A stretch of DNA of 64,000 nt from Candidatus Berkelbacteria bacterium (lineage in GTDB: Bacteria > Patescibacteriota > UBA1384 > JACPKC01). The translations under genes were made by a program, and so were the position numbers. How positions within the stretch are numbered: position 1 is the first letter of the stretch; each line of letters opens with the position of its first letter. Below the pieces are notes generated by a model. That model made no database searches. It worked only from the letters and a program-made list of their open reading frames with translations, and was not told where the DNA came from. The DNA is taken from positions 67,541 to 131,540 of the forward strand of contig JACPKC010000010.1 of assembly GCA_016187225.1 (NCBI GenBank). The letters are read 5' to 3'. Shown here one piece after another: positions 26,706 through 42,284 of this stretch.

Positions 26706-26779
26706 TGGCAGGAGCTGGAGGAATCGAACCACCGACCGCGGTTTTGGAGACCGCTGTTATACCACTTAACTAAGCTCCC
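26706..26779 (-). tRNA. tRNA-Trp (anticodon CCA), CCA encoded
   Basis: Hand-folded: anticodon stem GCGGT/ACCGC, loop CTCCAAA. The T-arm GGTGG-TTCGATT-CCTCC has one central U-U mismatch. 74 nt. Confidence 0.8.
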
Positions 26780-26789
26780 TTTCTAATTG

Positions 26790-26978
26790 TTAGGTTCGCG
26801 GTTTTGGATTTGGCAATTTTGTCTCGTTATGTTGAGTGTGTTTGCGGCACCAAGTGCAGTATTTTTCAAGCACAAGCTTATCAGTTGTGTTCACAACATT
26901 TTTTGACACCACATAGTTGCGTCGCTTACATTCGACACAAGTGAGATTAAATTTTTGTCGTTTGCCTTTTTTTGCCAT
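26790..26978 (-). CDS. rpmG: 50S ribosomal protein L33
   Basis: [27 protein letters not shown]...[15 protein letters not shown]. Start set at the MAKKGK methionine. Confidence 0.9.
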
Positions 26979-27010
26979 ATTCTTCCTTTCTTTGTCTTTT
27001 TCTACAAAAC

Positions 27011-27085
27011 TGGAGCCCACGGGCGGATTTGAACCGCCGACCTATTCCTTACCATGGAATTGCTCTGCCTCTGAGCTACGTGGGC
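27011..27085 (-). tRNA. tRNA-Thr (anticodon GGT), CCA encoded
   Basis: Hand-folded: acceptor GCCCACG/CGTGGGC, anticodon stem ATTCC/GGAAT, loop ATGGTAA, T-arm GGCGG-TTCAAAT-CCGCC. 75 nt. Confidence 0.9.
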
Positions 27086-27086
27086 T

Positions 27087-27173
27087 TGGTGCTGGGGGTA
27101 GGATTCGAACCTACGAAGGCGCTGGGCCGTCAGATTTACAGTCTGATGCGTTTGACCGCTTCGCTACCCCAGC
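27087..27173 (-). tRNA. tRNA-Tyr (anticodon GTA), long variable arm, CCA encoded
   Basis: Hand-folded: acceptor GCTGGGG/CCCCAGC, anticodon stem TCAGA/TCTGA, loop CTGTAAA, 15-nt variable arm. 87 nt. Confidence 0.9.
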
Positions 27174-27181
27174 TTGTTATC

Positions 27182-27256
27182 TGGAGCCACCTGTCGGATT
27201 TGAACCGACGACCTTCACTTTACAAAAGTGTTGCTCTACCGCTGAGCTAAGGTGGC
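27182..27256 (-). tRNA. tRNA-Thr (anticodon TGT), CCA encoded
   Basis: Hand-folded: acceptor GCCACCT/AGGTGGC, anticodon stem ACACT/AGTGA, loop TTTGTAA. 75 nt. Confidence 0.9.
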
Positions 27257-28080: not shown

Positions 28081-28369
28081 GGGGCTATCCCGAACAAGAC
28101 AGTTTTTCTTCGTTTCAGGTAACCGGCTGAAAACTATTATTCTTCGACTCTCCGTTTTACGGCATTTTTTGAATGTCTCAAACAAGAGCCAGAAGTATAA
28201 ACCCGTCAGTGCGGGCAGATTTTGTTATCGCGAGTGAACCGTAGCGATCCTGGTAGATTGTCGCGGTTGCAACCTCGTAATTTTCAGGATTGCTTCGTCG
28301 TCCTTGGCTCCTCGCAATGACGACAATGAGAAAGCCCTGATAAATAGGGAAACAGGGGATTGAAGGTGG

Positions 28370-28390
28370 CGTGGATAACTGTGGATAACT
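28370..28390. promoter_or_regulatory. Tandem 10-mer GTGGATAACT x2 containing one perfect (TGTGGATAA) and one 8/9 DnaA-box-like site
   Basis: Read directly. TGTGGATAA is the complement of the TTATCCACA DnaA-box consensus. Box spacing is 10 bp. Confidence 0.4.
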
Positions 28391-28893
28391 TTCACAATGG
28401 GGGAGTGAAAAGGGGATGCCGCGCCTAAACTGTTTAGGCGATTATATGGTGCATGAAAAAGTTTATAAGAGGGGAGTAAAGATTATTTAATGCTAGGGAA
28501 GTGCAAATTTTTTTTATTGTGTGTAATTTTTTATCCTACAAACTCTCCCCCGCTTTCAGCTTGTCGTCGTAAGTCATCCAATTTTTGATAGGCGCATGTT
28601 GCGTACGCTAAAAAACTCATTGATATTTTAGAAATAAAATACTACTCCCCTGCTCCAAATTTTTGCATCATTTGAGATCGTTAGGAAATTTATTTTCTGC
28701 ACCTCGAAAAGAGCGCCAGCGACGCTTTTGCAGAGAAGTCCTCGACTATATAAATAATTCTCGATGCGCTTCGCTTACTCGAACAAGAATACTTTTTAAC
28801 CATCAAAAACTTTCGACACGCCCGGACAAGAACCCAAGGCCAGTCTTGAGCAAAACATTTCTTGCTAATGGGCGGGAGACTTAAGACAGAGAG

Positions 28894-30546
28894 TTACTCG
28901 TTCCCGTGGAAGGGTCGGCGGATAATAAAGTATGAGACAATACCCGAAAGGATCGATGCTATCAGAAGAACAATGATTAGATTCGCTCCAGAACTTGCGA
29001 GTTTGACGGGTGCGCCTTTGCCGTCGGTTTTGGTTTGGACGACAACCGGTTCTTTTGCTGTTACTGCTTGTGTGCCAAGTATCTTCTCGCCTTGACGAAC
29101 TGTAATCGTATAATTACCGGCCGTCGTGTAGGTATGTTTCAAAGTTGTTGGGCAAGTGACGTTGCTTTGCACAATGCCGTCTCCAAAATCAACAGTTAAG
29201 TTGGTAATCGTATCGCCGGTGCAAGTAAAGGCAACTTCAAACGGCACTGTGCCTGTGGTTGGGGTCACTGCAAAGGTTCCTGTTGGGGGAGTGACGACAG
29301 TTTGAATTTGGGTTTGTGAAATTGTAAAAGAGGCGCTCTTGCTTTGAGTTTTATTTTCGGCCAAATAACTAACAGTCACAATATAGTTGCCTGAAGCGGC
29401 CGTCAGGCCGTCGGATTTTTTCTGATCCCAGGTCCAGGTCTTCGACTGGCCAATACTTAAATCGATGAGCGCTTGAGTCGAGATCGGCTCAAAGATCGCC
29501 GTGGAACCTTGCAGAATCTTAAAGGGCGCCCCATTCGGCAATTGAACCTTTGCTTCGCCAGTGTTTTTAAGCGTAAATTCCACCAGTTCAGCCGGTTTGT
29601 AGATGCTTTTCGAGGTTGTCAAGCTAACCGAAATTACTTTAGGCTTCTCAATGGGTTTGGGTTCTTCTTTGGGCTGTGTAGTCGTGACGGTTTTTGTATC
29701 GACAGTCTTACCATTGACGATCAGAGTGACTGTAAAAGTTCCCACCGAAGTATAAGTATGGGTTTCAGCGGCATTTGCATCGTCTAGGGTTGTGCCATCG
29801 CCAAAGTTCCATTTAATCTTGGGCGAGGCGCTACCGCCTTGCGGCGGTGTATAGGTGGCTGTTACCTTTAAGGGAATATTTCCCGTTGTTGGCTCGACCA
29901 CCATTGTGCCCAAATCATTTGGATCATGCAGAGCACTAAACGCAAAATCATCAATTCCAAAACCGTCAGTAGTGCCAGGAGCATTTTTCTTTAAGCGAAT
30001 CTCGGCAATGCCACTATCCGCAGTGGTGGCAGCAAGAGTGACTGGTGAGTTTACGCACTGACCACCCCCAGGAGCATTAACGGTCTTTGTAGCGATGCTC
30101 TTACCGTCAATATCAAATGCTTCAATACTTACTTCGGCATTGCCAGCATTCCCAATAGAAAAATTCATAGAATCACTGACACGCCCCTGGGTAAACTTTA
30201 TCACTAGAGGAGCGTATGAGCTTGGTTTTGCGATTAGAATATTTGGCTCCGACGGCACTTTGTAGCTTGGGCAAGCCGCACTTGCCCCAGACGCCGCAAA
30301 AAGCGTTGCACCGCTACCGCCGCCGTCCGGACTCAAAATCTCTACACCTTTGTCGGCATAGGCATCGCCAGCAATATCGCCTGAAGATTTATCATCCCAG
30401 TTGAGAGTGGTTTTTTCTGTCGCAATGTCGGCTTGTGAGAGCTGAAAAGTTTGAATGCTCCAATAGCCTAAACTCGCACTAAAAATTAGCGCGCTCACAA
30501 CCAGCGCTTGCCGCACTCTCAAGTATAACGGTGGTATTTTAGCCAC
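28894..30546 (-). CDS. Secreted/cell-surface protein with PKD domains and C-terminal sorting-signal-like tail
   Basis: N-terminal signal anchor. Two PKD-like units (KWNFGDGTT...HTYTSVGTFTVTL; VDFGDGIV...HTYTTAGNYTITV). C-terminus is KLASSGAN + TM + RRP. Confidence 0.7.
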   Translation of the reverse strand: MAKIPPLYLRVRQALVVSALIFSASLGYWSIQTFQLSQADIATEKTTLNWDDKSSGDIAGDAYADKGVEILSPDGGGSGATLFAASGASAACPSYKVPSEPNILIAKPSSYAPLVIKFTQGRVSDSMNFSIGNAGNAEVSIEAFDIDGKSIATKTVNAPGGGQCVNSPVTLAATTADSGIAEIRLKKNAPGTTDGFGIDDFAFSALHDPNDLGTMVVEPTTGNIPLKVTATYTPPQGGSASPKIKWNFGDGTTLDDANAAETHTYTSVGTFTVTLIVNGKTVDTKTVTTTQPKEEPKPIEKPKVISVSLTTSKSIYKPAELVEFTLKNTGEAKVQLPNGAPFKILQGSTAIFEPISTQALIDLSIGQSKTWTWDQKKSDGLTAASGNYIVTVSYLAENKTQSKSASFTISQTQIQTVVTPPTGTFAVTPTTGTVPFEVAFTCTGDTITNLTVDFGDGIVQSNVTCPTTLKHTYTTAGNYTITVRQGEKILGTQAVTAKEPVVVQTKTDGKGAPVKLASSGANLIIVLLIASILSGIVSYFIIRRPFHGNE

Positions 30547-30570
30547 AATCCCTCCTTTTGCTAGTATTTT

Positions 30571-30598
30571 AATACTAAATGGTAAATACTAAATGGTA
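30571..30598. repeat. 14-bp tandem direct repeat (aatactaaatggta x2) in a divergent intergenic region
   Basis: Read directly at 30571-30584 and 30585-30598. Confidence 0.85.
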
Positions 30599-30703
30599 AA
30601 TAGCGAACGGACCGAGTATTTTGATTGCTTTGCAAGTAAGCGGTGGAAAACATCGCTCACATATTTTTTCGGTCTGCTACAATATATATAATTGTTAGGC
30701 TAA

Positions 30704-31105
30704 ATGAATCTATGGAGGGGTATGTCGTTTTTAGATAAACGTTCGTCAAGGCGAACCATTATTTTTTTGATCTTACTCATCCTGATTGCTGGAGCGATTC
30801 GTTATTTTACAATTAAGCCTCAAACTATTATCACGCCAACCACCGCAACCATTAATGAGCAACTGGCAGAAAAAACTGGCATAATCCGTTCATTTGATGG
30901 CGCGACCGTAAAAGTTACCGATCAGGAAGGCAATGAGCAAGCTTTTACTTTAACAGATGACGTTAGAATTCGCGTCACGAATGACGAGGGTATTTTTGTG
31001 GAAGGTAAAAAAGATGATTTTAAGGCCGGTCGCGCCATTTCCTATTATCTTTTAATCGGCATCTCGAGTCCGATGAGTAGTTCAGTTGATATCGTGAAGG
31101 AGTAG
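30704..31105 (+). CDS. Hypothetical membrane-anchored small protein (133 aa)
   Basis: N-terminal TM (IIFLILLILIAGAI). Lies 3 nt upstream of the next gene. Start uncertain (ATG 30704 or 30722). Confidence 0.5.
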   Translation: MNLWRGMSFLDKRSSRRTIIFLILLILIAGAIRYFTIKPQTIITPTTATINEQLAEKTGIIRSFDGATVKVTDQEGNEQAFTLTDDVRIRVTNDEGIFVEGKKDDFKAGRAISYYLLIGISSPMSSSVDIVKE

Positions 31106-31107
31106 CC

Positions 31108-33114
31108 ATGACGCATGCTCGATTTTTAGCCCTTTTTGCTTTTGTTTGGGGATTGTTATTCTTAGGGTCGGCGCAAGCCCAGGTTTATGACCACCCGGGT
31201 TTGGGTCTTAAGGTGCCAGAAACTTCATGTTATACCTACCGAACTGGTGTTAGATTTGCCATAACTAATAGTTCTTCTATACCAATAATTGAGTCGAATA
31301 ATGATTCACAGTACGACTCATTCTATGCTTCATTAACAACGCCTGGCACAGGCGCACCAGCGAATAATTCAGTTTGTAACTTTGCAGTGCCGGCTGATAC
31401 CGCCGAAGTGAAATTACTTGCCATTCAACGGCCAGGAAGTCAACAAGCAATGCAACAATGGGCAAATTGTCCTAATTTACCTCAGTGGATGCAAAACATA
31501 TTTTGCCCCGGTGGCGCTAATCCAATGACTACGCCAGCTTCTATTAATTTCACGGGCGAATATCACAACTACGAGACCGGCAATCCTATCAATCCAAACG
31601 ATTTCACTCTTTATAAGCAAACTCAATATGCGCTGAATCCGGTTGTGCTCACAAGTAATAGCAATGGTATTGTCGACTTTTCAAACATTACTCCGGTGGA
31701 TGATCAGGTCTTGCCACCTCCGAATCTACCCACAGGCCGACCGTGGCAGTATCGAAATCAAAGAATCGGTATGAACAATGGGAGCAATGGGAATATTCAA
31801 ATCGCAACGGCTGGGTCGGTTTTCTACGTTAACATTCGCAAAGGTGCGATTCAGAGTCTACCGGGAAACTTTAATTTAAATTCTCCGACAACCTCATGTT
31901 CAGGCAACTCGCCTCGAGTAACATTAAATTGGGGATCATCGCAAAGCGCAACTTCGTACGCAGTTTACCGTAATAATGTGGCGCTTAGTTTGAATGTCAC
32001 AAGCCCTTGGACCGACAACTCCGTTGCGTCTGGCTCGCATACCTATAAAATTCGTGCTCAAAATTCAGTTGGCTATACCGAGAGCAACTCTCAATTAGTC
32101 AATGTGCCAACCTGCCAGCCTCAACCAGTATTATCCAGTGTTGCGATTAATCCACCTTTTGCCACAGTAATTACAAATAATATTGTGCAGTTTAGCGCCA
32201 ATTGCCGCGATCAGAATGGCGCCAACTTTAATGGCGCATCCGTGCTTTGGGGCGCGCAAAGAGGATCAATCAATCAATCAGGCCTTTATACTGCTCCGGC
32301 GACTGCGGGTTCCGATACCGTGACTGCCCAGTGCGCGGCTGTGGGCCAGAATCCAGTTACTGGCGCCGCGCCTGTGACAGTTAAAGGGGGGCAAATAACT
32401 GGGGATATCTTTGCCGAGGGCGATGTCAGCAATCTTAATATCGATCCGGATTCAGTTGTCTCATCGAATGGAAGCGTCACTGTGACTGGCACGAATAACA
32501 CAATTCAGCAATACGACAGCAATGCTTCTCAACAAGCAGATACTGTTATTCAAAAACTCATCAATGAGAAGGCCAATGTCCTTGGCGCTGGTAGTTCGGC
32601 AAGTTGCACTAATAGCAATAGCGGTAATTACACGCTCAATAGTGTCTTCAATCTAAATCCCAAACAAGCGGGCAATCCCAGTGACTCTGAAGAAAATGCC
32701 GCTAACCCAGAGGGCGGAGTTTGGTTTGTGCGTCACAATTTAATCATGCGCGGCGCTACCTTTAAGGGTAAAGGCACAATCATTGTCTGCGGAGATGTGA
32801 ATTTAATTTCACCTTCGAATGAGAAAACTATTGCTTACCAAGACGGTGGCACCGGCGATGATCTGGTTGGATTGATTAGCCTGAACGGCAATATCGATTT
32901 AAGAAATTATGATAATCTAGTCGGCGCTTATTACGCGCCAAATGGCACGATTGATGTTGGGCAGGGTAGTTCCTCGCTTGGGCTTTATATTGGGGAAAAT
33001 ATTACCCTTCAAGCCGCTGATGTGACTGTTGATTACGATGGTCGCATTACTAACGGTCCACCCCCAGGCTTCAGCAAATCCTTCGTACCCTCGCTTTCTG
33101 AGGTCGCGCCGTAA
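31108..33114 (+). CDS. Large secreted protein with FN3-like and Big_2-like domains and a beta-helix-like C-terminal region
   Basis: Signal peptide MTHARFLALFAFVWGLLFLGSAQA. AAGGAG SD. FN3-like SATSYAVYRNN segment. Big_2-like VLSSVAINP...GLYTAPATAGSDTVTA. Confidence 0.65.
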   Translation: MTHARFLALFAFVWGLLFLGSAQAQVYDHPGLGLKVPETSCYTYRTGVRFAITNSSSIPIIESNNDSQYDSFYASLTTPGTGAPANNSVCNFAVPADTAEVKLLAIQRPGSQQAMQQWANCPNLPQWMQNIFCPGGANPMTTPASINFTGEYHNYETGNPINPNDFTLYKQTQYALNPVVLTSNSNGIVDFSNITPVDDQVLPPPNLPTGRPWQYRNQRIGMNNGSNGNIQIATAGSVFYVNIRKGAIQSLPGNFNLNSPTTSCSGNSPRVTLNWGSSQSATSYAVYRNNVALSLNVTSPWTDNSVASGSHTYKIRAQNSVGYTESNSQLVNVPTCQPQPVLSSVAINPPFATVITNNIVQFSANCRDQNGANFNGASVLWGAQRGSINQSGLYTAPATAGSDTVTAQCAAVGQNPVTGAAPVTVKGGQITGDIFAEGDVSNLNIDPDSVVSSNGSVTVTGTNNTIQQYDSNASQQADTVIQKLINEKANVLGAGSSASCTNSNSGNYTLNSVFNLNPKQAGNPSDSEENAANPEGGVWFVRHNLIMRGATFKGKGTIIVCGDVNLISPSNEKTIAYQDGGTGDDLVGLISLNGNIDLRNYDNLVGAYYAPNGTIDVGQGSSSLGLYIGENITLQAADVTVDYDGRITNGPPPGFSKSFVPSLSEVAP

Positions 33115-33146
33115 TCCAATGTGCTATACTTTAAGCATACTTTCTA

Positions 33147-33809
33147 TTGAGGAGGGGCGTGTTAAGTTTCCAAAATGATGGCATTCAACCGGCTAAGACG
33201 CCGGCAAATGGAGCGGCAGGCCCAGCGCCTGTTCAACCAGCCAAATCTGCTCTTGACCCAAGTGTGGTAGCAATCAACCCGGAATCAAACGATTCGCTAA
33301 TCGCAATTTTTGCGGGTTTAAGTGTTGCTCTTAGTCTCCTCGGCGGTGTTGCGGCCTCATTTTTGCGGGCCCAAGCGAAAGGAGAAGCTGAAGCCTCAAG
33401 TCAAAAAGTGACGAGCCTTCAGCAGGAATTCGCCTCGGGCGATCTTAAAACTATGCTCGATAAGGCTGGTTTAGTTGAAAAACAGCTCGAGGTCACAAAA
33501 GAATTCTCTGCCGCCCTGCCTTGGCCAAAGCTCTTAAAAGCTCTAGCCGACAAAGTCCCTGGATCGGTTAAATTTACGGCCAATTCTTTTGAAACTGACA
33601 AGTCATTAAGAATTGACGGCTCGGCAAATAATTACGCCGAGGTAGCGCGACTCATGACCGCCATCGAGTCGACGGATGAGTTTTCGGAGATTGCGCTGAC
33701 GAGCGCAACTCTTTCTGAATCTGTCGACGGTAATTCGATTACTTTTTCAATCACGGCCAAATATGCGGCGCCAGTCGCTGGAGGGGATGATGGCGGAAAT
33801 ACAAACTGA
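33147..33809 (+). CDS. PilN-like type IV pilus assembly membrane protein
   Basis: Cytoplasmic N-segment, one TM (LIAIFAGLSVALSLLGGVAA), coiled coil and C-terminal alpha/beta domain. Directly upstream of the pilO-like gene. Start uncertain (TTG 33147 or GTG 33159). Confidence 0.5.
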   Translation: MRRGVLSFQNDGIQPAKTPANGAAGPAPVQPAKSALDPSVVAINPESNDSLIAIFAGLSVALSLLGGVAASFLRAQAKGEAEASSQKVTSLQQEFASGDLKTMLDKAGLVEKQLEVTKEFSAALPWPKLLKALADKVPGSVKFTANSFETDKSLRIDGSANNYAEVARLMTAIESTDEFSEIALTSATLSESVDGNSITFSITAKYAAPVAGGDDGGNTN

Positions 33810-34389
33810 ATCAACTAAACATAACACTTTGTTGTGGCTAATTTTAGGCGTGATTGGTTCAGCCGCGGCATTCTATTTATATACCTTGCCTCAAATTCGC
33901 GAGCTCAAGCTTTTGCGCACGCAGTCGGCGACGCTTGAGGCTGATCTTTCAAGCTTAAACGAAAAGAAAACCACTGTTGTTAAATTAAACGACGATCTTA
34001 AAAGGAGCACTGCGCTGACTGACAAACTTGCTCTGGCTGTGCCAGAGGATGAGGCTATCGATGAGCTCATTACTTCACTTGAAAAGATTGTTGAAAAAGC
34101 GGGCATTACTTTGTTGTCGGTTCAGCCGGCAAGCAATGTTGAAACAGGCAAGACAACCGCTATGCTTTCAACCCGAGGCTCATATTCCGGCACAACACTA
34201 TTTCTTGAATTTTTAGAAAAGAACCTTCGTCCGATTGGCGTCAATGATCTTGCACTCACAGCGACGTCGGATATTCAAGGCGCGTCGCTGATTAGCGCCT
34301 CATTCGAGATTACTCCTGCCCAGATTGCCAAGGCCGCACCGGCGGCAGAGACGTCCGCTCAAGACACAGAGACAAAAGGAGCCCAATGA
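33787..34389 (+). CDS. pilO: PilO-like type IV pilus assembly protein
   Basis: TM + coiled coil (LEADLSSLNEKK) + KLALAVPEDEAIDELITSLEKIVEKAGITLLSVQP, which fits the PilO pattern. Start at ATG 33787 or 33790, after GGAGGGG. Confidence 0.6.
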   Translation: MMAEIQTESTKHNTLLWLILGVIGSAAAFYLYTLPQIRELKLLRTQSATLEADLSSLNEKKTTVVKLNDDLKRSTALTDKLALAVPEDEAIDELITSLEKIVEKAGITLLSVQPASNVETGKTTAMLSTRGSYSGTTLFLEFLEKNLRPIGVNDLALTATSDIQGASLISASFEITPAQIAKAAPAAETSAQDTETKGAQ

Positions 34390-34637
34390 ATCGGCCCATA
34401 GTAATTGGCATCGGTTTAGGAGTGAATCTCATTCTTGCGGGTGTGACACTTTGGCTGATTATGCGCGCCGTGCCCATGACGTCGGATATTGAAAGCGCCC
34501 GGACAAAAGTTGAACCTGCGCCAAAATTTACGATCAAAGATATCGAGGCGCTTAAATTGGATGAAAAAACCCTGAATGGTGACTTGCCGATCTCGATTGA
34601 TGGAGTTGGGCGTGTCGATCCATACGCGGGGATTTAG
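34386..34637 (+). CDS. Small membrane protein of the pilus locus (83 aa)
   Basis: ATGA overlap with the pilO-like gene, one TM, immediately upstream of pilB. Confidence 0.45.
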   Translation: MNRPIVIGIGLGVNLILAGVTLWLIMRAVPMTSDIESARTKVEPAPKFTIKDIEALKLDEKTLNGDLPISIDGVGRVDPYAGI

Positions 34638-34642
34638 CAATT

Positions 34643-37153
34643 ATGGTGAACCCTCAAGCCCAAAATAATTTGGAGATTCTCAAAAAAACGGCCGCTGAAC
34701 TCGGCCTTGAGCTTGTCGCACTCACCCAGGACACTCCTGAACAATCCGCCCTGGCTCTGGTGCCCGAAGCATTGGCGCGTCAATATCAGTTACTGCCTTT
34801 AACTCTTAAAGAGAAATCACTCACTCTCGTCTTAACTGATCCAGCGCTCTTGACAAAACCAGCGCCCAAATTTCTGCAGGAACTCAAGCAAAACGGGTAT
34901 CATCTGCGTTTGCAACTCACATCCAGCGAGGATTTTCAAACTGCTTTGGGAGCTTATCGACCACAAGTCAATGGCCAGAGGCCACTATCCAGAGTGAATA
35001 ACGCTCAAAGTCAGAACATGCAAGCGAAAACAACTGTGCAGGCAGGTCCTCAACCAGTAACTAGTATACCCCCAGTCGCTTCACCCGCACTTTCGGTGCC
35101 AGCCTCGGTGCATTCGGCGCAAGTCGAGTTAGTTATATTGAAAAGCAGAGAAGTGCCTTTGAACGTTTTAAACAAATTCCCCCAGGACGTGGCGAAAAAG
35201 TATCAGATGGTTGTGTTTGAACTTTCAGCCGACGGTCAGGAGGCATCCGTTGCCGCCCTTAAACCTAACGACCGTCGAATTCGAGAAATTCTCAAGTTTA
35301 TTGAGGCGCGAAACAAGGTTCGAATTCATTTATTCTCGGCGAGTAAAGAGGATATTGAAGGAGTATTGAAGCAATATGACACAGAGCACAGAGAAGACAA
35401 AAAACCAGCCCAAGCTCCAACGCCAATTTCTTCGATCTCTACTCCGCCTGCGCAGAAGTCAGCCATGGTTTCGGCGCCACTAAAGCCGAGTTTTGCGCCG
35501 ACAATTCTCACTCCTTCAGTGAAACCTAATTCTGTGTCGCGCATTCCACCCAAACCCGTTTCAGCGCCGCTCCCAGTTGTCCCCAAAAGACCTATCTTGT
35601 CGCCTTTGCCGACGCCGCTGGCGGCGCGGCCAGTTACGCCCATTGGGCCCAAAATCGGCGGCCTTACACCAGCTCAACCAATTGCGCCCGAGACGCCAAA
35701 TAGTTTGGGCACGACCGATCTTAAATCATACCAAGAAGCAATCATTCGTAATTCTGCCACTCTTCGAGATCCAAGTACGCCGGTTCCAACGGTCGAAGTT
35801 GGTGATTTACAACTCCCAACCAATCAACTTGGCGTGGGCGAGTTGCCGGAAGGACAAGCGCCGATTATGATAACCAATATCGGCGCAGAAGATAAAAATC
35901 TCGACATAGTTCTCGGCACGACCGTTGAAACTTCTGAACAACTTGAGCAAATTCTTAAATCTGGCATGGTGCCAAAAATTGTCGCCGCGATCGTGTTTTA
36001 CGCCACTGCCGTGGCCGCATCCGATATTCACATGGAGGCTGGTGAGAAAGAGGTTCGGATTCGCTTTCGTGTTGATGGCACTTTACAGGAAATTATCAAA
36101 TTGCCGGTTCAACTTTTGGCGCCGATTGTGTCGCGCATCAAAATTTTAGCCAAACTCAAAATCGATGAATCGCGCATCCCGCAAGATGGCCGTTTCGGGG
36201 TGATTGTGCAAAAGCGGGAAATTGATCTGCGAGTTTCAACCCTGCCAACAGTTTTCGGCGAAAAAGTGGTTATGCGGATTCTCGATAAAGAAAAAAGTTT
36301 GAAAAAACTCACTGAATTGGGTATTCAGGGTACTAATCTCGCTCGAATCCAGTCAGCAATCAAAGACCCCTTTGGTATCATTTTAGTGACTGGTCCGACC
36401 GGTTCAGGCAAGACCACAACACTTTACGCGATGTTAACTGAACTCAATACCGCAAGTGTCAACATTGTTACTCTCGAAGACCCGGTCGAGTATCAGCTTG
36501 ATGGCATCAATCAGACCCAGGTCAAGCCAAAAATCGGCTTTGGTTTTGCCGATGGTTTACGTTCAATTCTGCGGCAAGACCCGAACATTATTATGGTTGG
36601 CGAGATTCGCGATGGAGAGACTGCCGGCCTGGCAACTCAAGCCGCGTTGACCGGTCACCTGGTGCTTTCAACTTTGCATACCAACGACTCATCTGGAGCG
36701 CTTCCCCGGATGATCGATATGCACGTTGAACCATTCCTCCTAGCTTCTTCGGTGAATATCGTGATTGCCCAGCGTTTGATTCGTCGCTTGTGCTCAAAGT
36801 GTCGCCAGCCAGCCTCAATTCCGGCCGAAACTCTCACTCGCATTCAGCAGGAGCTCGCCTCGGCATTCGCTCCTGAACTTAAATCAGCGGCGAGTAAGCA
36901 ACTTTCTTTCTTCGGCCCAAATCAAAAGGGCTGCAATGTCTGTCATAATGGTTATAAGGGTCGGGTCGGGATTTACGAAGTTCTAATTACCAGTCCGGCT
37001 ATCGCCGATCTCGTTCTTGCTAAATCCGCCTCGTCCAAAATTGCGGCTAAAGCTCACGAAGAGGGGATGATCACACTTAGAGAAGACGGCATCCTTAAAG
37101 CCATGCAAGGTGAAACATCGCTTGACGAAGTCATTCAAGCCACCAGCGAATAG
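34643..37153 (+). CDS. pilB: Type IV pilus assembly ATPase PilB (GspE family) with two T2SSE_N-like domains and a long Pro-rich linker
   Basis: Walker A GPTGSGKTTTL, Asp/His boxes, tetracysteine CSKC...CNVC. N-terminal ALALVPEALARQYQLLPL and PQDVAKKYQMVVF units. Confidence 0.9.
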   Translation: MVNPQAQNNLEILKKTAAELGLELVALTQDTPEQSALALVPEALARQYQLLPLTLKEKSLTLVLTDPALLTKPAPKFLQELKQNGYHLRLQLTSSEDFQTALGAYRPQVNGQRPLSRVNNAQSQNMQAKTTVQAGPQPVTSIPPVASPALSVPASVHSAQVELVILKSREVPLNVLNKFPQDVAKKYQMVVFELSADGQEASVAALKPNDRRIREILKFIEARNKVRIHLFSASKEDIEGVLKQYDTEHREDKKPAQAPTPISSISTPPAQKSAMVSAPLKPSFAPTILTPSVKPNSVSRIPPKPVSAPLPVVPKRPILSPLPTPLAARPVTPIGPKIGGLTPAQPIAPETPNSLGTTDLKSYQEAIIRNSATLRDPSTPVPTVEVGDLQLPTNQLGVGELPEGQAPIMITNIGAEDKNLDIVLGTTVETSEQLEQILKSGMVPKIVAAIVFYATAVAASDIHMEAGEKEVRIRFRVDGTLQEIIKLPVQLLAPIVSRIKILAKLKIDESRIPQDGRFGVIVQKREIDLRVSTLPTVFGEKVVMRILDKEKSLKKLTELGIQGTNLARIQSAIKDPFGIILVTGPTGSGKTTTLYAMLTELNTASVNIVTLEDPVEYQLDGINQTQVKPKIGFGFADGLRSILRQDPNIIMVGEIRDGETAGLATQAALTGHLVLSTLHTNDSSGALPRMIDMHVEPFLLASSVNIVIAQRLIRRLCSKCRQPASIPAETLTRIQQELASAFAPELKSAASKQLSFFGPNQKGCNVCHNGYKGRVGIYEVLITSPAIADLVLAKSASSKIAAKAHEEGMITLREDGILKAMQGETSLDEVIQATSE

Positions 37154-37161
37154 GAGTTCCG

Positions 37162-38268
37162 ATGGTTGAGACGCAATCCACGCAAGCCATGTTGGGCGCC
37201 AACGATCGCTCACTTTCACCACATTTAAGCGAGATGCTTAAATTCGCAATTGAACATAGCGCTTCTGACTTACACATTCAAATCGGCGTGCCGCCAGTTA
37301 TCCGCATCGACGGCAAACTTCGCTCGGTGCCAGATCAGCCCCTTTATACTCAAGAATCGGCGGCCGCCGACGTGCTTTCGAGTCTAGGGACCGTGCAACG
37401 CGAACGCTTTGCGACCGAACGCGAACTCGACTTTTCTTTTACCTTTGAAACGATGCGCTTACGTTGCAATGTTTACTATGAAAAAGGCAACATCGTCGGC
37501 GCTTACCGATTAATTCCAACTCAAATTCGAACTGTTGAACAACTTGGCTTGCCGCCGGTTTTGGTTCAGTTAACCGAACACAAACAAGGACTCGTGATTA
37601 TTACTGGCCCAACTGGCCATGGCAAATCCACCACGCTGGCGGCTTTAATCGACCATATTAATCACAATCGCTCCGAGCACATTATTACAATTGAGGATCC
37701 AATCGAGTACATTTTCGCAAATCAGAAAAGCGTCATCTCCCAACGTGAAGTGGGCTTCGATACCAAAACTTTCGCCAATGCCTTGCGCGCTTCCATGCGC
37801 CAAGACCCGAATGTAATTTTAGTCGGTGAGATGCGCGATTTGGAAACGATGGCTTCAGCGTTAACGCTCGCTGAAACTGGTCATTTAGTTTTCACAACTT
37901 TGCACACCAACTCCTCGGCCGAAACCGCTGATCGCATTATCGATGTCTTTCCGCCGCATCAACAACAGCAGATTCGCTCTCAACTTGCCTCGGTTTTATT
38001 GGGCGTCATTTCTCAACGTCTCCTGCCTAAAATCAATGGCGGGCGAGTTGCGGCGGCAGAAATTATGCTGGGCACAACCGCCGTTCGAAATACCATTCGC
38101 GAGGGCAAGACTCATCAGCTCGACAATATTATTCTCACCGGTTCAGCCGAGGGTATGATTAATCTCGATGCTGTGCTTGCCGGTCTCGTTAATAAGGGGG
38201 AAGTTACAATTGACGATGCGATCAACTGGGCGCGCGATTCTAAACAACTCAAGATTAATATCTTTTAG
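37162..38268 (+). CDS. pilT: Twitching-motility retraction ATPase PilT
   Basis: About 368 aa, Walker A GPTGHGKST, MRDLET and TGHLVFTTLHT motifs. Confidence 0.9.
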   Translation: MVETQSTQAMLGANDRSLSPHLSEMLKFAIEHSASDLHIQIGVPPVIRIDGKLRSVPDQPLYTQESAAADVLSSLGTVQRERFATERELDFSFTFETMRLRCNVYYEKGNIVGAYRLIPTQIRTVEQLGLPPVLVQLTEHKQGLVIITGPTGHGKSTTLAALIDHINHNRSEHIITIEDPIEYIFANQKSVISQREVGFDTKTFANALRASMRQDPNVILVGEMRDLETMASALTLAETGHLVFTTLHTNSSAETADRIIDVFPPHQQQQIRSQLASVLLGVISQRLLPKINGGRVAAAEIMLGTTAVRNTIREGKTHQLDNIILTGSAEGMINLDAVLAGLVNKGEVTIDDAINWARDSKQLKINIF

Positions 38269-38270
38269 TT

Positions 38271-39353
38271 ATGCCCGAGCCCGTAAAAAAACCCGCCCTC
38301 AAGTTCGAGATTGATATTCCTTTTTTGAATAATGTTTCAGTGAGAGAGAAGTCTTTTTTAGCGCGCCAGCTGGCCACGATGCTTGCAAGCGGTTTGGCGC
38401 TTAATCGTGCCGTGGCTATTCTCGTAGCTCAAACTCAAAACAAAACCCTTAAAACGGCGCTTCAGGGTATTGAAACAGATCTCGAGGGCGGCTTGCCGTT
38501 TTCGGGCGCAATTGCCAAACATCCAAAGATTTTTGACCGAGTTTTCGTGAACGTGGTAATTTCGGGCGAAAGCGTGGGGCGCTTGGCGGATGTGCTCAAT
38601 CAACTTGCCGACCAGCTTGAAAAAGATTCCGGCTTCATGAATCGAGTTAAAGGCGCTCTGGCTTATCCAGCCTTTGTCTTTGTGGCGATGATCGTTGTCG
38701 GCGCAATTACGATGGTTTACATCATTCCGCAACTTCAAAGTGTCTTCGAGGAAGCCGGCGCCGAATTGCCATTTTTAACTCGCATGATTATCGCTATAAG
38801 TCATTTTCTACAAAACTATTGGTGGTTAATTATTATTTTTGTCGTCGTAGGTTTAGCTGTTGGTCGCACATATTTTCGTTCCAAAGCGGGCGAGCGTCTC
38901 TGGGGGCTGATTCAACTTCACCTTCCAGGGCATCTTGGCTACGATATCTATATGGCCAGGTTTAATCGCACCCTGGGAATGCTCGTGCAAGCCGGCACAC
39001 CAATTATCGAAGCAATCAGTGTCACGGCGTCGGTGATGGATAATCTGCTTTATCGCGAGTATTTGGCGGCGGCGGCCGATCAAGTTAAACGCGGCGTCCC
39101 GCTTTCCGTGCCTCTTCAAAAAACCGCGCTTTTTCCGCTCATTGTTGGCCAGATGATCGCAGTTGGCGAGCAAACAGGTCGCCTCGATCAGATTCTCTTA
39201 AAACTCGCCGAGTATTATGAAGAGGAAGCAGATAGTAAAATCAAGCAATTAAGCAGTTTAATTGAGCCGATTGTAATCGTTTTGATCGGTGTTGGAGTGG
39301 GGATTCTTGTCTATGCGATCCTGGTGCCAATCTATAATATCGCACAGTTCTAA
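38271..39353 (+). CDS. pilC: Type IV pilus platform protein PilC (T2SS F family)
   Basis: Duplicated T2SSF domains, 3-TM topology. Position pilB-pilT-pilC. Confidence 0.9.
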   Translation: MPEPVKKPALKFEIDIPFLNNVSVREKSFLARQLATMLASGLALNRAVAILVAQTQNKTLKTALQGIETDLEGGLPFSGAIAKHPKIFDRVFVNVVISGESVGRLADVLNQLADQLEKDSGFMNRVKGALAYPAFVFVAMIVVGAITMVYIIPQLQSVFEEAGAELPFLTRMIIAISHFLQNYWWLIIIFVVVGLAVGRTYFRSKAGERLWGLIQLHLPGHLGYDIYMARFNRTLGMLVQAGTPIIEAISVTASVMDNLLYREYLAAAADQVKRGVPLSVPLQKTALFPLIVGQMIAVGEQTGRLDQILLKLAEYYEEEADSKIKQLSSLIEPIVIVLIGVGVGILVYAILVPIYNIAQF

Positions 39354-39870
39354 GGGTTTTACGCTTTTAGAGCTCATGATCGTTATCACGATCGGCGGTA
39401 TTTTAATTAGTGTTGTCGGCATGAATTTTTCGTCAACGCGAAGGCAGGCGCGGGACGCGGTGCGGAAAAGTGACGTTGAGGCGATTCAAACGGCGCTCGA
39501 GCTTTATTACAACGCTCACAATGAGTTTCCCAATTTCAATACCTGGGCAACGAGCAATAACTCGATCGGATCTGGCAATTGGGCCTCGCTTCAGCAGGAT
39601 TTAAGCCCATATTTAAGTTCAATGCCGACCGATCCGGTGAATGCGAGTGGAACTACGCCTGAAAATGGCGGGCTGGCTTACGGCTATCTATCCACAGCCG
39701 CCTATGGTTGCACTGGACAATGGTATGTTCTTGTTTATACACTTGAAGTTGAGAACGATCCCGCTTTAACTCGAAGCCCAGGGATTTCTACTTGCAACAG
39801 TCAAACGCTTAACGATAGCAACCTTGCAAGCGCTCCTTGGACGTTTTGGGTCGGTGTCTCTGGGAGTTAA
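39313..39870 (+). CDS. Prepilin-type N-terminal cleavage/methylation domain protein (pilin)
   Basis: Class III signal ...SSKG|FTLLELMIVITIGGIL. The start lies inside the pilC 3' end (ATG 39313). Confidence 0.8.
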   Translation: MRSWCQSIISHSSKGFTLLELMIVITIGGILISVVGMNFSSTRRQARDAVRKSDVEAIQTALELYYNAHNEFPNFNTWATSNNSIGSGNWASLQQDLSPYLSSMPTDPVNASGTTPENGGLAYGYLSTAAYGCTGQWYVLVYTLEVENDPALTRSPGISTCNSQTLNDSNLASAPWTFWVGVSGS

Positions 39871-39970
39871 AATATGCTAGAGTAATCAAAAGGTATTTAT
39901 CGATCGAAGTTGAGAACGTCTTGGCTCTATCGGACAAAAATTATCACTCACAATAATAAAAGGAGGCAGA

Positions 39971-40465
39971 ATGAATTTACATAGAAGTAAACAACGAGGT
40001 TTCACGCTCCTCGAGCTCCTCGTTGTGGTTGCGATTATCGCGATTTTAGCCGCGGTGATTGTGGCAAACTTAAACTCGGCGCGAAGTAAGGCAAATGATG
40101 CCAAGGTGAAGCAGGATCTCAATGGCGTCGATCAGGCACTTGCAGTTGCGACCGCTGACCCATCGGTTCTTGGATCGGCGCCTTTAAACGCCTTAAATAA
40201 TGGCGGCGGCGTTTTAGTTGATATCGACACCGAAACGGCGCTAACAGTTAATGGTTATCTTAAGACTTTTCCAATTCCACCATCGGGTATAACGCAATAT
40301 AACTATCGTAGCAACTATTCCAATGGGATTTTCGGCTATGTGTTGTGGGGTACACTCTCAACAAAAACTGGCGCAAACAATGACTGCTGGGTTATAAACA
40401 CCGGTAACGCTTTTCAGTCGAACGGCTGTCTTGCCGCCGATACAACTGGTGTAACACTTCCGTAA
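39971..40465 (+). CDS. pilA: Type IV pilin, likely major subunit
   Basis: MNLHRSKQRG|FTLLELLVVVAIIAILAAVIV. Strong AAAGGAGG SD and its own 100-bp upstream region. Confidence 0.8.
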   Translation: MNLHRSKQRGFTLLELLVVVAIIAILAAVIVANLNSARSKANDAKVKQDLNGVDQALAVATADPSVLGSAPLNALNNGGGVLVDIDTETALTVNGYLKTFPIPPSGITQYNYRSNYSNGIFGYVLWGTLSTKTGANNDCWVINTGNAFQSNGCLAADTTGVTLP

Positions 40466-40478
40466 TTTAAGAATTTTC

Positions 40479-41273
40479 ATGTCGGAGTTTGAGCAAGCGG
40501 TCAATTTTTGGCCGCTTGCGGCGATTTTTGGTCTGTTTTGGGGTTCATTCTTGAATGTTCTTGCTTTGCGCTGGGGTTCAAAGTATCGAGGCTTGACACT
40601 CGCAGAACGGAGTCACTGCCCAAAGTGCCAAAAAATTTTAAATTGGCACGAGCTTCTGCCCCTAATAAGTCTTATACTTTTACACGGCCGTTGCCGAGGC
40701 TGTCGAAAAAAAATTGACTTGCGCTATCCAGGCGTTGAAATTTTAACCGCAGTTTTTCTTGGGGGAATAGTTTTTAAGTATGGGTTGTCAGCTCAAGCCT
40801 TAACTCTGTCAGTTGCCGGGAGTTTGCTTTTGATCGCGGCGCTAGTTGATTTTGAAACTCAAATTTTACCCGATTCTTTAGTTGCAAGCGCTTTCGTTTT
40901 AACTCTCCTTGTAACACTTTTACTGGGTCAATCAGCGCTTGTGAATCTAGCGTTTCCAGTTTCCAGTTGGTGGCGGGGCGCCTTAACCGGCGGGTTGATC
41001 ATCGGCGCGATTTTTCTTCTTACGCGTGGGAAGGGGATTGGTTTTGGCGATGTTAAATTAGCGACCGTGCTCGGATCAGTAGTCGGTATGAGCGGCGCCC
41101 TACTTATGTTGTGGAGCGCGTTTATTTTGGGCAGTCTTGTGGGCGGAACACTTCTACTTCGTCGCCGCGCAACCTTAAAGACCGCTCTTCCATTCGGCCC
41201 CTTTTTATTTGCTGGCTGGCTGATCGCGCTTTTTTGGGGTCGTGACATCATTGCATGGTATACTCAATTATAA
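40479..41273 (+). CDS. pilD: Prepilin peptidase / N-methyltransferase (A24 family)
   Basis: Cys-rich N-domain CPKC...CRGC, polytopic, GFGDVKL catalytic Asp motif. Confidence 0.9.
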   Translation: MSEFEQAVNFWPLAAIFGLFWGSFLNVLALRWGSKYRGLTLAERSHCPKCQKILNWHELLPLISLILLHGRCRGCRKKIDLRYPGVEILTAVFLGGIVFKYGLSAQALTLSVAGSLLLIAALVDFETQILPDSLVASAFVLTLLVTLLLGQSALVNLAFPVSSWWRGALTGGLIIGAIFLLTRGKGIGFGDVKLATVLGSVVGMSGALLMLWSAFILGSLVGGTLLLRRRATLKTALPFGPFLFAGWLIALFWGRDIIAWYTQL

Positions 41274-41292
41274 TATTGACGGGTAATAAGTT

Positions 41293-41796
41293 ATGCGTAA
41301 AAACGATACTAATCAGGGTTTCTCGCTTATCGAACTCTTAATCGTCATGGTTATTATTGGTATGTTGGCAACCGTCGTTACTATTTCGTCTTCAGCCTCA
41401 AGGGCGCAGGCGCGCGATAGTCGCCGCAAATCCGATGTCCAGACCGTGGCCGCGGCGCTTGAAACTTATCGAGTTGAGAACAAAGTTTACCCAACCGAGA
41501 ATAACTTCTCCGGAAGCTGGGACGACCTCAAAGTCGTGCTTTTCCCCGATTTTATTTCCGAATGGCCCGACGATCCACAAGGCAATGCCAGTCAATATGG
41601 CGAGGGGTATGTGTACGCAACCGACTCGCTTGGTTCGGCTTACGCGCTTGACGTCACCTTAGAAGGGGATGAAGACGTAACCTTGCAACCCAACGAAATC
41701 GACGAAACTTTGACAGTTAATCCAGATGAAGATTTTTTCGTCACAGGTATCTATAGTTATGGCGGCGACACCCATTACCGCTTCAGCGGCCGGTAA
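41293..41796 (+). CDS. Prepilin-type pilin
   Basis: MRKNDTNQG|FSLIELLIVMVIIGMLATVV. Confidence 0.8.
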   Translation: MRKNDTNQGFSLIELLIVMVIIGMLATVVTISSSASRAQARDSRRKSDVQTVAAALETYRVENKVYPTENNFSGSWDDLKVVLFPDFISEWPDDPQGNASQYGEGYVYATDSLGSAYALDVTLEGDEDVTLQPNEIDETLTVNPDEDFFVTGIYSYGGDTHYRFSGR

Positions 41797-42283
41797 GGGC
41801 TTTACCCTTATTGAACTTATCATTTCGATGGCGATCATCGTGATGCTTTTAGGTTTGGGAATTCCAGCTTTTCGACGCTATGGTTTACGAGCTGATCTAG
41901 AAAATGCAGGTGTGACTTTAGCCACTAATATCTTTCGGGCGCGCACTTTAAGTTTGGCGCCCGAAGCGAGCAAAGAAGGTAATATCACGGCCTACGGCGT
42001 TGCTTTTGATGCTCTGAATAATAAATACCGCATTGCGCGCTTTAGTGGCGAGGGGGCAAACGTTCAAGAAGAAAGCGTCGTCGATCAATTTCTTTTACCC
42101 AATCAGGTCGCTTTTTCGGTTGCGCCTGCCGAGCCGATTCTTTTTCCGCTTGCTCTTCAAGGCGAGCCGGCCCAGCTGCCCGCGGATAGCAACCTCGCTC
42201 TTTTACACACTCGACTCGCCCAAAACAACTCGCGGACTATAAACATCAATCAAGTTACCGGTCAAGTCAGCTTAGAGGAGTAA
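41759..42283 (+). CDS. Minor pilin (GspH/FimT-like)
   Basis: ...AAGKG|FTLIELIISMAIIVMLLGLGIP. Start taken at ATG 41759, overlapping the upstream pilin gene. Confidence 0.7.
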   Translation: MAATPITASAAGKGFTLIELIISMAIIVMLLGLGIPAFRRYGLRADLENAGVTLATNIFRARTLSLAPEASKEGNITAYGVAFDALNNKYRIARFSGEGANVQEESVVDQFLLPNQVAFSVAPAEPILFPLALQGEPAQLPADSNLALLHTRLAQNNSRTININQVTGQVSLEE

Positions 42284-42284
42284 A

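Follow-up and report, generated by a model that had tools for sequence, protein, structure and literature searches.

Two unrelated secreted proteins encoded in one stretch of DNA from Candidatus Berkelbacteria, uncultured bacteria of the CPR, end in the same way: a short motif, a hydrophobic segment and a basic end. Are these C-termini substrates for a sortase, and if so, which sortase would act on them? The stretch, called here the window, is 64,000 nucleotides long. We conclude that each tail is probably an LPXTG-type C-terminal signal for sorting to the cell wall, in a variant without proline (L-[A/V/I/L]-x-[T/S]-G) that characterises Berkelbacteria and the CPR lineages closely related to them. 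The two genes and their parts are:

28894..30546, minus strand: gene for the PKD protein, 550 aa with two PKD domains (ORF and translation); candidate sortase substrate
30430..30546, minus strand: N-terminal signal peptide or signal anchor of the PKD protein, VAKIPPLYLRVRQALVVSALIFSASLGYWSIQTFQLSQA (inspection of the translation)
28897-29034, minus strand: C-terminal tail of the PKD protein, TKTDGKGAPVKLASSGANLIIVLLIASILSGIVSYFIIRRPFHGNE, 46 aa (translation)
28987..29001, minus strand: LASSG pentapeptide of the PKD protein, putative sortase recognition motif (P4 Leu, P3 Ala, P1 Ser, P1' Gly)
28921..28986, minus strand: membrane-spanning hydrophobic segment of the PKD protein, ANLIIVLLIASILSGIVSYFII, 22 aa, conserved in orthologues
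28897..28920, minus strand: positively charged stop-transfer tail of the PKD protein, RRPFHGNE (translation)
61400..62230, plus strand: gene for the repeat protein, 276 aa, rich in Ser, Thr, Asn and Gln (ORF and translation); candidate sortase substrate
61400..61468, plus strand: Sec-type signal peptide of the repeat protein, MQKSIAIVAFALMVTAGSSSVFA (inspection of the translation)
62090-62227, plus strand: C-terminal tail of the repeat protein, TKTELPKELLKTGANTVALALGSAVISAGGAAFARRKQMVADLIVG, 46 aa (translation)
62114..62128, plus strand: LLKTG pentapeptide of the repeat protein, putative sortase recognition motif (P3 Leu; translation)
62129..62191, plus strand: Ala/Gly-rich hydrophobic segment of the repeat protein, ANTVALALGSAVISAGGAAFA, 21 aa (translation)
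62192..62227, plus strand: basic stop-transfer tail of the repeat protein, RRKQMVADLIVG (translation)

The PKD protein corresponds to NCBI entry MBI2590007.1 from Candidatus Berkelbacteria, and it matches the Pfam families PKD_4 (58.1 bits) and PKD (50.4 bits). The repeat protein has no Pfam domains, and according to Tandem Repeats Finder its gene contains no repeat at the DNA level. Its only relative in an exhaustive HMMER search of 1.84 billion representatives was P0204, which has no anchor. By inspection, both N-termini consist of a basic n-region, a hydrophobic core and a small-residue end (LSQA in the PKD protein, VFA in the repeat protein), and the orthologues of the PKD protein (P0002-P0005) are alike.

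The coordinates and sequences that the preliminary description of this DNA gave for the two tails match the window exactly, and the order that it reported (motif, hydrophobic helix, RR/RRK) is seen in both proteins, with hydrophobic segments of 21-22 residues. Like LPXTG, the motifs LASSG and LLKTG have Leu at P4 and Gly at P1'; unlike LPXTG, neither has Pro at P3, and LASSG has Ser at P1. Ser at P1 and Leu at P3 are uncommon among characterised sortase signals. Among the 20,484 residues encoded by the genes of the window, there are 14 matches to the pattern L[AVILP].[TS]G. Only two of them, those in the PKD and repeat proteins, lie 35-38 residues from the C-terminus and run straight into a terminal hydrophobic segment and then RR/RRK. 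The tripartite architecture of both tails is more than chance would produce.

The tails had also been described as a single shared unit of 46 aa starting at TKT, and this does not hold up. The two motifs are 3 residues out of register, and the equal length is a coincidence because the motif Gly is residue 16 of one tail and residue 13 of the other. TKT is not conserved; at its position, orthologues of the PKD protein have SAT, SSV, SAS or TTN instead. BLASTP returned no local alignment between the two tails even at E<=100. A clade-specific tail HMM, built without both window tails but with the PKD orthologues included, picked up the PKD tail at E 2e-11 and also the substrate of locus L009. The repeat-protein tail was not recovered (E=0.41), and the two window tails can therefore not be called homologous.

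In the four orthologues of the PKD protein (37-45% identity), L-A-S-[T/S]-G stands directly before the hydrophobic segment, at the position of LASSG in the window, and the residues upstream are variable. The motif is LASTG in P0002, P0004 and P0005 and LASSG in P0003. The IIRRPFHG end is conserved in P0002-P0004. Against curated sorting-signal models, TIGR01167 included, the PKD tail gave no match at E<=10, and PF00746 scored below its cut-off for both tails. The one curated model that was passed was TIGR01167 LPXTG_anchor (cut-off 15.9), by the repeat-protein tail scored alone at 17.9 bits; inside the whole protein, the score was 12.5 bits. Three other readings were rejected because their scores fell under the cut-offs. 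On the GlyGly-CTERM model MprA_tail (cut-off 19.7), the repeat-protein tail alone scored 18.5 bits and the whole protein 14.7, with a match that spans only the hydrophobic segment. On Rumino_NPXTG, the same tail alone scored 19.1 bits vs a cut-off of 23.5. On the model of PamR, the anchor of the CPR Pam pilus (NF058578), the PKD protein scored 18 bits vs a cut-off of 300, and the match is confined to its Ig-like domains (residues 389-487). The repeat-protein tail is the weaker of the two cases for a sortase substrate.

If the tails are sorting signals, where is the enzyme? The statement that the window holds no sortase was correct: a sortase HMM run on the ORFs of all six frames reached E 0.3 at best. 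The TLxTC motif is absent from every real gene of the window, and PF04203 does not appear in the precomputed Pfam tables, which span the window except for about 24.3-27.2 kb. No sortase was found in the 10 kb flanking the window on each side. A sortase was found on another contig: P0096, which corresponds to MBI2589792.1. Its Logan contigs and the window come from the same two groundwater samples (SRR12113424 and SRR12113420), and its accession differs by 215 from MBI2590007.1, the PKD protein. The tetranucleotide correlation between the P0096 contig, which has a GC content of 0.49, and the window is 0.964, compared with 0.938-0.970 among the window's own quarters and at most 0.807 for other CPR loci. 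The two have no 31-mers in common. On this strong but indirect evidence, P0096 and the window very probably come from one metagenome-assembled genome (MAG).

Directly upstream of P0096 lies the gene for an 830-aa Kelch/PKD protein that ends in TTLVSTGNPAW, a hydrophobic segment and RHK, and this is a third candidate substrate. The preliminary description had named, as a finding that would refute a sorting signal, that only two proteins carry the tail and that the genome lacks a sortase. This does not apply, as another contig carries both a sortase gene and one more candidate substrate. The same order, substrate and then sortase, is found in loci L008 (LVSTGAN) and L011 (LAATG, with LVSTG nearby). 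In three Berkelbacteria genomes altogether, the gene that immediately precedes the sortase gene encodes a protein ending in L-[V/A]-x-T-G.

We collected 22 distinct tails, most of them from loci with sortases of the P0096 clade (L008-L028) and four, the PKD orthologues, from the protein search. The consensus L-[V/A/I/L]-x-[T/S]-G fits all 22, and Pro is absent from P3 throughout. The CPR sortases gathered number at least 164. The motifs are LVSTG (12 tails), LIATG (3), LASTG (3), LASSG (2), LAATG (1) and LLKTG (1). Neither LVSTG nor LASTG was found as a sortase motif in the literature searched. Exact-motif matches there were, in the passages available, unrelated acronyms and a Corynebacterium paper that contains LAATG.

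P0096 is a member of the sortase family, with 60.9 bits on TIGR01076 sortase_fam (cut-off 39.35) and a precomputed PF04203 match. The generic sortase model is the only one on which it exceeds the cut-off: it scored 54.3 bits vs 160 on the class E model (NF033747), 64.3 vs 160 on class C and 62.8 vs 165 on class D. The CPR sortase thus reaches 50-54 bits on the NCBIfam class E model and about as much on class C and D. P0096 is unclassified among the current sortase classes. The catalytic triad (His148, Cys215 and Arg224) and Tyr130 are invariant in 22/22 sequences, and the catalytic domain takes up about residues 90-240. The AF2 model of P0096 (pLDDT 73) matched sortase structures with a probability of 1.00, and the closest structures of low rmsd are class E enzymes (5cuw at 27% identity and T. 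fusca SrtE at 25%).

In alignments, Tyr130 falls on the 'GHY' tyrosine of SrtE1 and on Phe92 of CpSrtD. In class E sortases, the 'GHY' tyrosine has been proposed to favour a non-proline P3 (PMC5148588). More distant CPR sortases, next to which LPVTG or LPDTG tails are encoded, have the same tyrosine, and thus it does not discriminate specificity within the CPR. The class E tyrosine is consistent with the missing proline but is not a discriminating explanation.

Peptidoglycan genes lie inside and beside the window (Mur ligases, MraY, MurG, MurB, FtsW/RodA, and class A and class B PBPs), and a MurJ gene lies beside the gene for P0096. The full peptidoglycan pathway is encoded, and a lipid II or peptidoglycan acceptor would be available.

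Based on these results, we propose a model for the two proteins. Sec would export both by way of the signal peptides at their N-termini, and the hydrophobic segment and the RR/RRK cluster would retain the C-terminus in the membrane. The membrane-anchored sortase P0096 would then use His148, Cys215 and Arg224 to cleave between T/S and G, and would transfer the cleaved protein to lipid II or the peptidoglycan stem peptide. As a result of this transfer, the adhesin-like PKD protein and the repeat protein would be covalently displayed on the wall. We infer from the sequences the cleavage, its site, the acceptor, and the use of one sortase for LVSTG, LASSG and LLKTG. We know of no CPR sortase substrate for which cleavage or wall linkage has been proven biochemically.

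The tails may instead be plain, uncleaved C-terminal anchors of type I membrane proteins, in which L-x-x-[ST]-G is a juxtamembrane feature or an unprocessed relic. It would fit this explanation that the PKD tail matches no sorting-signal HMM, that the repeat-protein tail is not significant on the clade tail HMM, and that the cytoplasmic IIRRPFHG is unusually well kept in the PKD orthologues, which could mean that a retained tail has a function. There is a proposed precedent in the CPR pilus protein PamR, the C-terminal helix of which has been suggested to be a plain membrane tether (bioRxiv 10.64898/2026.03.03.709456). However, a plain anchor does not account for a pentapeptide that recurs at the same position on unrelated passengers (PKD, Kelch/PKD, small proteins and the repeat protein), or for the repeated location of such tails next to a sortase gene. 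Moreover, the motif abuts the hydrophobic segment just as in proven substrates. By chance, about 7e-4 occurrences per residue are expected. We therefore regard plain anchoring as unlikely. That the likeness of the two window tails is pure chance, with no common biology behind it, is hardly credible. The failure of BLASTP to align the tails and the coincidental TKT start and 46-aa length would agree with it, but only 2 of the 14 motif occurrences stand at a C-terminal hydrophobic segment, both in proteins with signal peptides, and the motif is kept in orthologues of the PKD protein.

It is also very improbable that the tails are signals for another or a new sorting enzyme, such as a rhombosortase/GlyGly-CTERM-like or unknown CPR-specific system. 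The non-canonical motifs and the near-threshold scores of the repeat-protein tail alone on MprA_tail (18.5 vs 19.7) and Rumino_NPXTG (19.1 vs 23.5) would point in this direction, but both scores are under their cut-offs and LPXTG_anchor alone was passed. Furthermore, there is a sortase with genetic linkage to tails of this kind, and nothing else is conserved with the tails. Rhomboid and exosortase families are absent from the window's Pfam tables. A 'novel sorting signal', as the preliminary description had offered, is not needed; the motif is probably a LAxTG-like variant of LPXTG. Its other suggestion, a sortase-like signal, is borne out by the tripartite signals, the L-A-S-[T/S]-G of the orthologues, the sortase of very probably the same MAG and the adjacency of substrate and sortase.

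How do these sorting signals compare with known systems? Like the LAXTG signals of the Actinobacteria, which are used by class E sortases (SrtE1/SrtE2 and the chaplins of S. coelicolor; PMC5148588), they are tripartite with a small or aliphatic non-proline P3, and P0096 shares with class E the tyrosine of the beta3/beta4 loop and an N-terminal membrane anchor. Unlike the class E signals, the CPR tails mostly have Val or Ile rather than Ala at P3 and Ser or Ala at P2, Ser may replace Thr at P1, and the host is a CPR bacterium and not an actinobacterium. With canonical LPXTG signals (TIGR01167/PF00746; class A housekeeping sortase), the window tails share the order of elements, the hydrophobic length, a basic end and a scissile bond that presumably lies between T and G, but they lack the P3 proline and P0096 is not a class A enzyme. 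For the CPR, an earlier paper mentions 'sortase motifs' in surface proteins (PMC5220378), and the available passages of Meheust et al. (2019; PMC6744442) place a sortase family in more than half of CPR genomes. The window organism fits the picture of sortase plus type IV pili drawn there for the sortase family fam000526. Those passages give no recognition motif or substrates for fam000526; the L-[V/A/I]-x-T-G consensus comes from the loci described here.

A broader hypothesis, which we put forward tentatively and with some doubt, is that the Berkelbacteria-type sortases form a separate unclassified class, equidistant from classes C, D and E. Such a class might recognise a proline-free L-[V/A/I/L]-[S/A/x]-[T/S]-G-[A/G]-[N/S] signal and tolerate Ser at the scissile position, and it might show genetic coupling with MurJ and with a conserved membrane protein of about 49 aa. 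It could be used by episymbiont-like bacteria to fix adhesin-like PKD/Kelch proteins to the wall, with most substrates missed by current annotation models.

In sum, nothing here is conceptually new, as CPR sortases and LAXTG-type signals were already known. P0096 and the tails provide a concrete candidate enzyme-substrate pair, and the L-[V/A/I]-x-T-G consensus together with a linked sortase provides a simple rule for finding such proteins. A sortase that accepts a non-proline P3 and Ser at P1 could also serve as an orthogonal ligation tool. A life attached to other microbes is assumed for CPR bacteria, which makes their surface proteins prime candidates for host contact. As curated models miss proline-less tails (none matched the PKD tail), annotation probably understates the set of wall-anchored surface proteins in Berkelbacteria and related CPR lineages.

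The preliminary description held that two unrelated surface proteins of the window, the PKD protein and the repeat protein, share a 46-aa C-terminal tail. Retranslation of 28897-29034 (minus strand) and 62090-62227 (plus strand) gave tail sequences identical to those described. The features are:

28894-30546, minus strand: PKD-protein gene, an ORF of 550 aa with two Pfam PKD domains
28897-29034, minus strand: PKD-protein C-terminal tail, translation TKTDGKGAPVKLASSGANLIIVLLIASILSGIVSYFIIRRPFHGNE
61400-62230, plus strand: repeat-protein gene, an ORF of 276 aa rich in Ser, Thr, Asn and Gln
62090-62230, plus strand: repeat-protein C-terminal tail, translation TKTELPKELLKTGANTVALALGSAVISAGGAAFARRKQMVADLIVG, then stop

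By inspection, both N-termini are signal-peptide-like; a Pfam search of the 276-aa protein matched no domain. In both tails 21-22 uncharged hydrophobic residues directly follow the motif, with RR or RRK next. The 64 likely window genes (20,484 residues) contain 14 occurrences of the loose pattern L[AVILP].[TS]G, of which only two, those of the PKD and repeat tails, lie 35-38 residues from a C-terminus. This arrangement is not due to chance, and we give almost no credence to pure coincidence as the source of the resemblance. The shared TKT start and equal length, on the other hand, are accidental. Counted from TKT, the motif Gly falls at position 16 of one tail and position 13 of the other, so the 46-aa total results from two unequal halves adding up. 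In PKD orthologues the TKT position reads SATDGKGAP, SSVDGKGAP, SASDGKGTP or TTNSTQAA, and BLASTP of one tail against the other found no local alignment, even at E<=100. The tails have an architecture and a short motif in common, but no detectable ancestry.

We rate the PKD protein as a strong candidate sortase substrate, because its motif is kept in orthologues and falls inside the motif family of the sortase clade described below (L-A-S-[T/S]-G). Its tail matched none of the curated sorting-signal models. Four orthologues, 37-45% identical to the window protein, end as follows:

...SLASTGGNLIV...IIRRPFHG
...RLASSGGNLIV...IIRRPFHG
...RLASTGASLVL...IIRRPFHG
...VLASTGASLGV...ILRQPLRK

To judge from these tails, L-A-S-[T/S]-G is kept while the upstream residues drift. 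The PKD gene lies divergently beside a type IV pilus cluster (together 28894-43492) that holds PilN/PilO-like genes, two T2SSE ATPases, T2SSF, several N_methyl pilins and a prepilin peptidase. A 42%-identical orthologue (locus L007) is likewise divergent beside such a cluster, and this conserved synteny may connect the anchored protein with the function of the pili. The ~800 bp immediately after the PKD gene on its downstream side (28081-28893) contain no convincing ORF, which is unusual in a compact CPR genome; Rfam gave no match there even at E<=1, and terminator-like hairpins are weak only.

The repeat protein is a weaker candidate. On the LPXTG_anchor model TIGR01167 (cut-off 15.9 bits) its tail scored 17.9 bits alone and 12.5 within the whole protein; on the GlyGly-CTERM and NPXTG models it approached the cut-off without passing it, and a clade-specific tail HMM did not detect it significantly (E 0.41). 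Unlike those of the other tails, its hydrophobic segment is rich in Ala and Gly. Among 1.84 billion representatives searched, only one relative was detected, P0204, which has two repeats and no anchor. The protein contains three copies of a ~55-aa module (VQNNNSxTSQSQNVNxTTVVNTGSG..), with two Cys in the last, and a further copy ends the upstream gene (60461-61237). None of the three consecutive genes upstream (56345-61237; 990-1029, 304 and 258 aa) has a Pfam match; the 258-aa product carries a signal peptide as well as a proline-rich stretch. These three and the repeat-protein gene make up an orphan, surface-protein-like gene cluster with raised GC (0.536 vs ~0.48).

That the window holds no sortase gene, as had been noted, was borne out. 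The TLxTC motif is in no real window gene, an HMM of 22 Berkelbacteria-type sortases reached only E=0.3 against all six-frame window ORFs, and precomputed Pfam tables (the window except ~24.3-27.2 kb, plus 10 kb on each side) list no PF04203. A search beyond the window, which the preliminary description had called for, did find a sortase. P0020, another PKD protein from Berkelbacteria, has the C-terminus ...ALVSTGANLWVTLLLGLAALIVLGLVFRRLTLSRTR, and its gene is immediately followed by a PF04203 sortase gene (L008). Searching with that sortase retrieved P0096 (278 aa; MBI2589792.1, 'sortase [Candidatus Berkelbacteria bacterium]'). The window PKD protein is identical to MBI2590007.1 (Candidatus Berkelbacteria), on a 320,597-bp contig, and the window DNA is also in Logan assemblies of runs SRR12113424 and SRR12113420. 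Because P0096 is on Logan contigs of exactly these two runs, its accession number and that of the PKD protein differ by 215, and its contig L009 (GC 0.49) has a tetranucleotide correlation of 0.964 with the window, this indirect evidence places P0096 very probably in the same MAG. The window's own quarters correlate at 0.938-0.970 and every other CPR locus at <=0.807; L009 and the window have no 31-mers in common. Both independent Logan assemblies break at ~27228, in a cluster of four tRNA genes (Trp, Thr, Tyr, Thr; 26706-27256, minus strand).

Linkage of tails to sortases was seen repeatedly. Directly upstream of the P0096 gene lies that of an 830-aa Kelch/PKD protein ending ...TTLVSTGNPAWLIGLIALWIAATVTIFASRHKIQGA, and assembly GCA_016198525.1 encodes both a PKD orthologue (P0002) and a sortase (P0089). 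Scanning GTDB genomes with a sortase alignment yielded 80 CPR loci. We compiled 22 distinct tails, most from the loci with the closest sortases (L008-L028) and four from the PKD orthologues found by protein search.

Tail motifs among the 22 distinct tails
LVSTG: 12
LIATG: 3
LASTG: 3
LASSG: 2
LAATG: 1
LLKTG: 1

None of the 22 has Pro at P3, the second motif position. G-[A/G]-[N/S] follows the motif in 13, which accounts for 'GAN' in both window tails. LPVTG and LPDTG are present at more distant CPR sortase loci, two of which have tails with Ser at P1, directly before the Gly:

L058, 3-1232, plus strand: ..NPLPTSGPVE, hydrophobic segment, KSKK (motif PLPTSG)
L030, 3-866, plus strand: ..GNMPVSGPAE, hydrophobic segment, RSKK (motif MPVSG)

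Ser at the scissile position may be generally tolerated in CPR.

The generic sortase model TIGR01076 (cut-off 39.35) is the only one that P0096 and its relatives passed, at 56-70 bits. They scored 50-71 bits on class C, D and E models, against cut-offs of 140-165, and so fit none of the current classes. An AlphaFold2 model of P0096 (mean pLDDT 73) matches sortase structures. Its best matches combining low rmsd with highest identity are class E (5cuw, 27%; T. fusca SrtE, 25%, rmsd 2.8), yet P0096 is below the class E cut-off. The catalytic triad His148, Cys215 and Arg224 is invariant in 22 sequences, as is Tyr130, which aligns with the 'GHY' tyrosine of S. coelicolor SrtE1 and Phe92 of C. perfringens SrtD. 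Kattke et al. (PMC5148588) proposed that, for the LAXTG signals of class E, this residue (SrtE1 Tyr229) favours Ala over Pro at P3. Tyr130 agrees with the proline-free motif but is not discriminating, because more distant CPR sortases adjoining LPxTG tails carry the same tyrosine. All full-length sortases of the clade (alignment A1, P0084-P0116; L009:5126-5962) end in RD[VI]IEL[IV]PGL after a proline-rich low-complexity linker, a region of low AF2 confidence; this end could be a regulatory or pseudo-substrate element.

In three Berkelbacteria genomes (L008, L009, L011) the order substrate, sortase, 233/257-aa protein, 49-aa protein, MurJ (lipid II flippase) and GltX is kept, which hints that the sortase is functionally coupled to the export of lipid II. 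The ~49-aa membrane protein (..FYADLDxAKxQGRGSCCxxWSF[FL]LLFG..) and its neighbour are located as follows:

L009:6689-6838, minus strand: ~49-aa membrane protein
L008:5850-6005, minus strand: ~49-aa membrane protein
L011:11702-11848, minus strand: ~49-aa membrane protein
L009:5979-6680, minus strand: adjoining 233-aa protein, which begins with a related EFYADLD..K motif and then a Cys-rich stretch

The ~49-aa protein resembles SafA, the small sortase-linked protein of Actinobacteria (PMC9282373), in position, but has no FPW motif.

Berkelbacteria are part of the Candidate Phyla Radiation (CPR). A peptidoglycan pathway that looks complete (Mur ligases, MraY, MurG, MurB, FtsW/RodA, class A and B PBPs) is encoded in the window and its flanks, and therefore a wall for anchoring proteins is expected. 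The type IV pilus cluster is also encoded there. About 5-10 kb past the 3' end of the window (L006:15168-20303) lie two large adjacent genes with DUF8128 and TrwB/T4SS coupling-protein-like domains, which may encode a pair of ATPases for type IV secretion or DNA transfer.

We propose that both window tails are sorting signals cleaved by a sortase, after which the proteins are wall-linked, and we consider this probable. Sec would export both proteins, and the hydrophobic segment and basic tail would retain them. We regard it as unlikely that the tails are uncleaved membrane anchors. That the tails serve another or a new sorting enzyme, the novel signal of the preliminary description, seems more improbable still, given the tails beside related sortases. 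Under sortase cleavage, a membrane-anchored enzyme would cut after the T/S and hand the protein to lipid II, hence to peptidoglycan. We infer this catalysis from the established sortase mechanism; the sequence features, genetic linkage and pathway presence were observed.

More than half of CPR genomes are reported to have sortases (PMC6744442), CPR surface proteins with 'sortase motifs' have been mentioned (PMC5220378), and LAXTG is an established signal of class E sortases (PMC5148588). In the library searched, no paper gave LVSTG or LASTG as a sortase motif or tied a motif to Berkelbacteria sortases. What is modestly new is that an unclassified CPR sortase clade has a proline-free consensus, L-[V/A/I/L]-x-[T/S]-G. 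Current annotation models largely miss such tails, and what is gained is a sound, useful annotation rule together with a testable enzyme-substrate pair.
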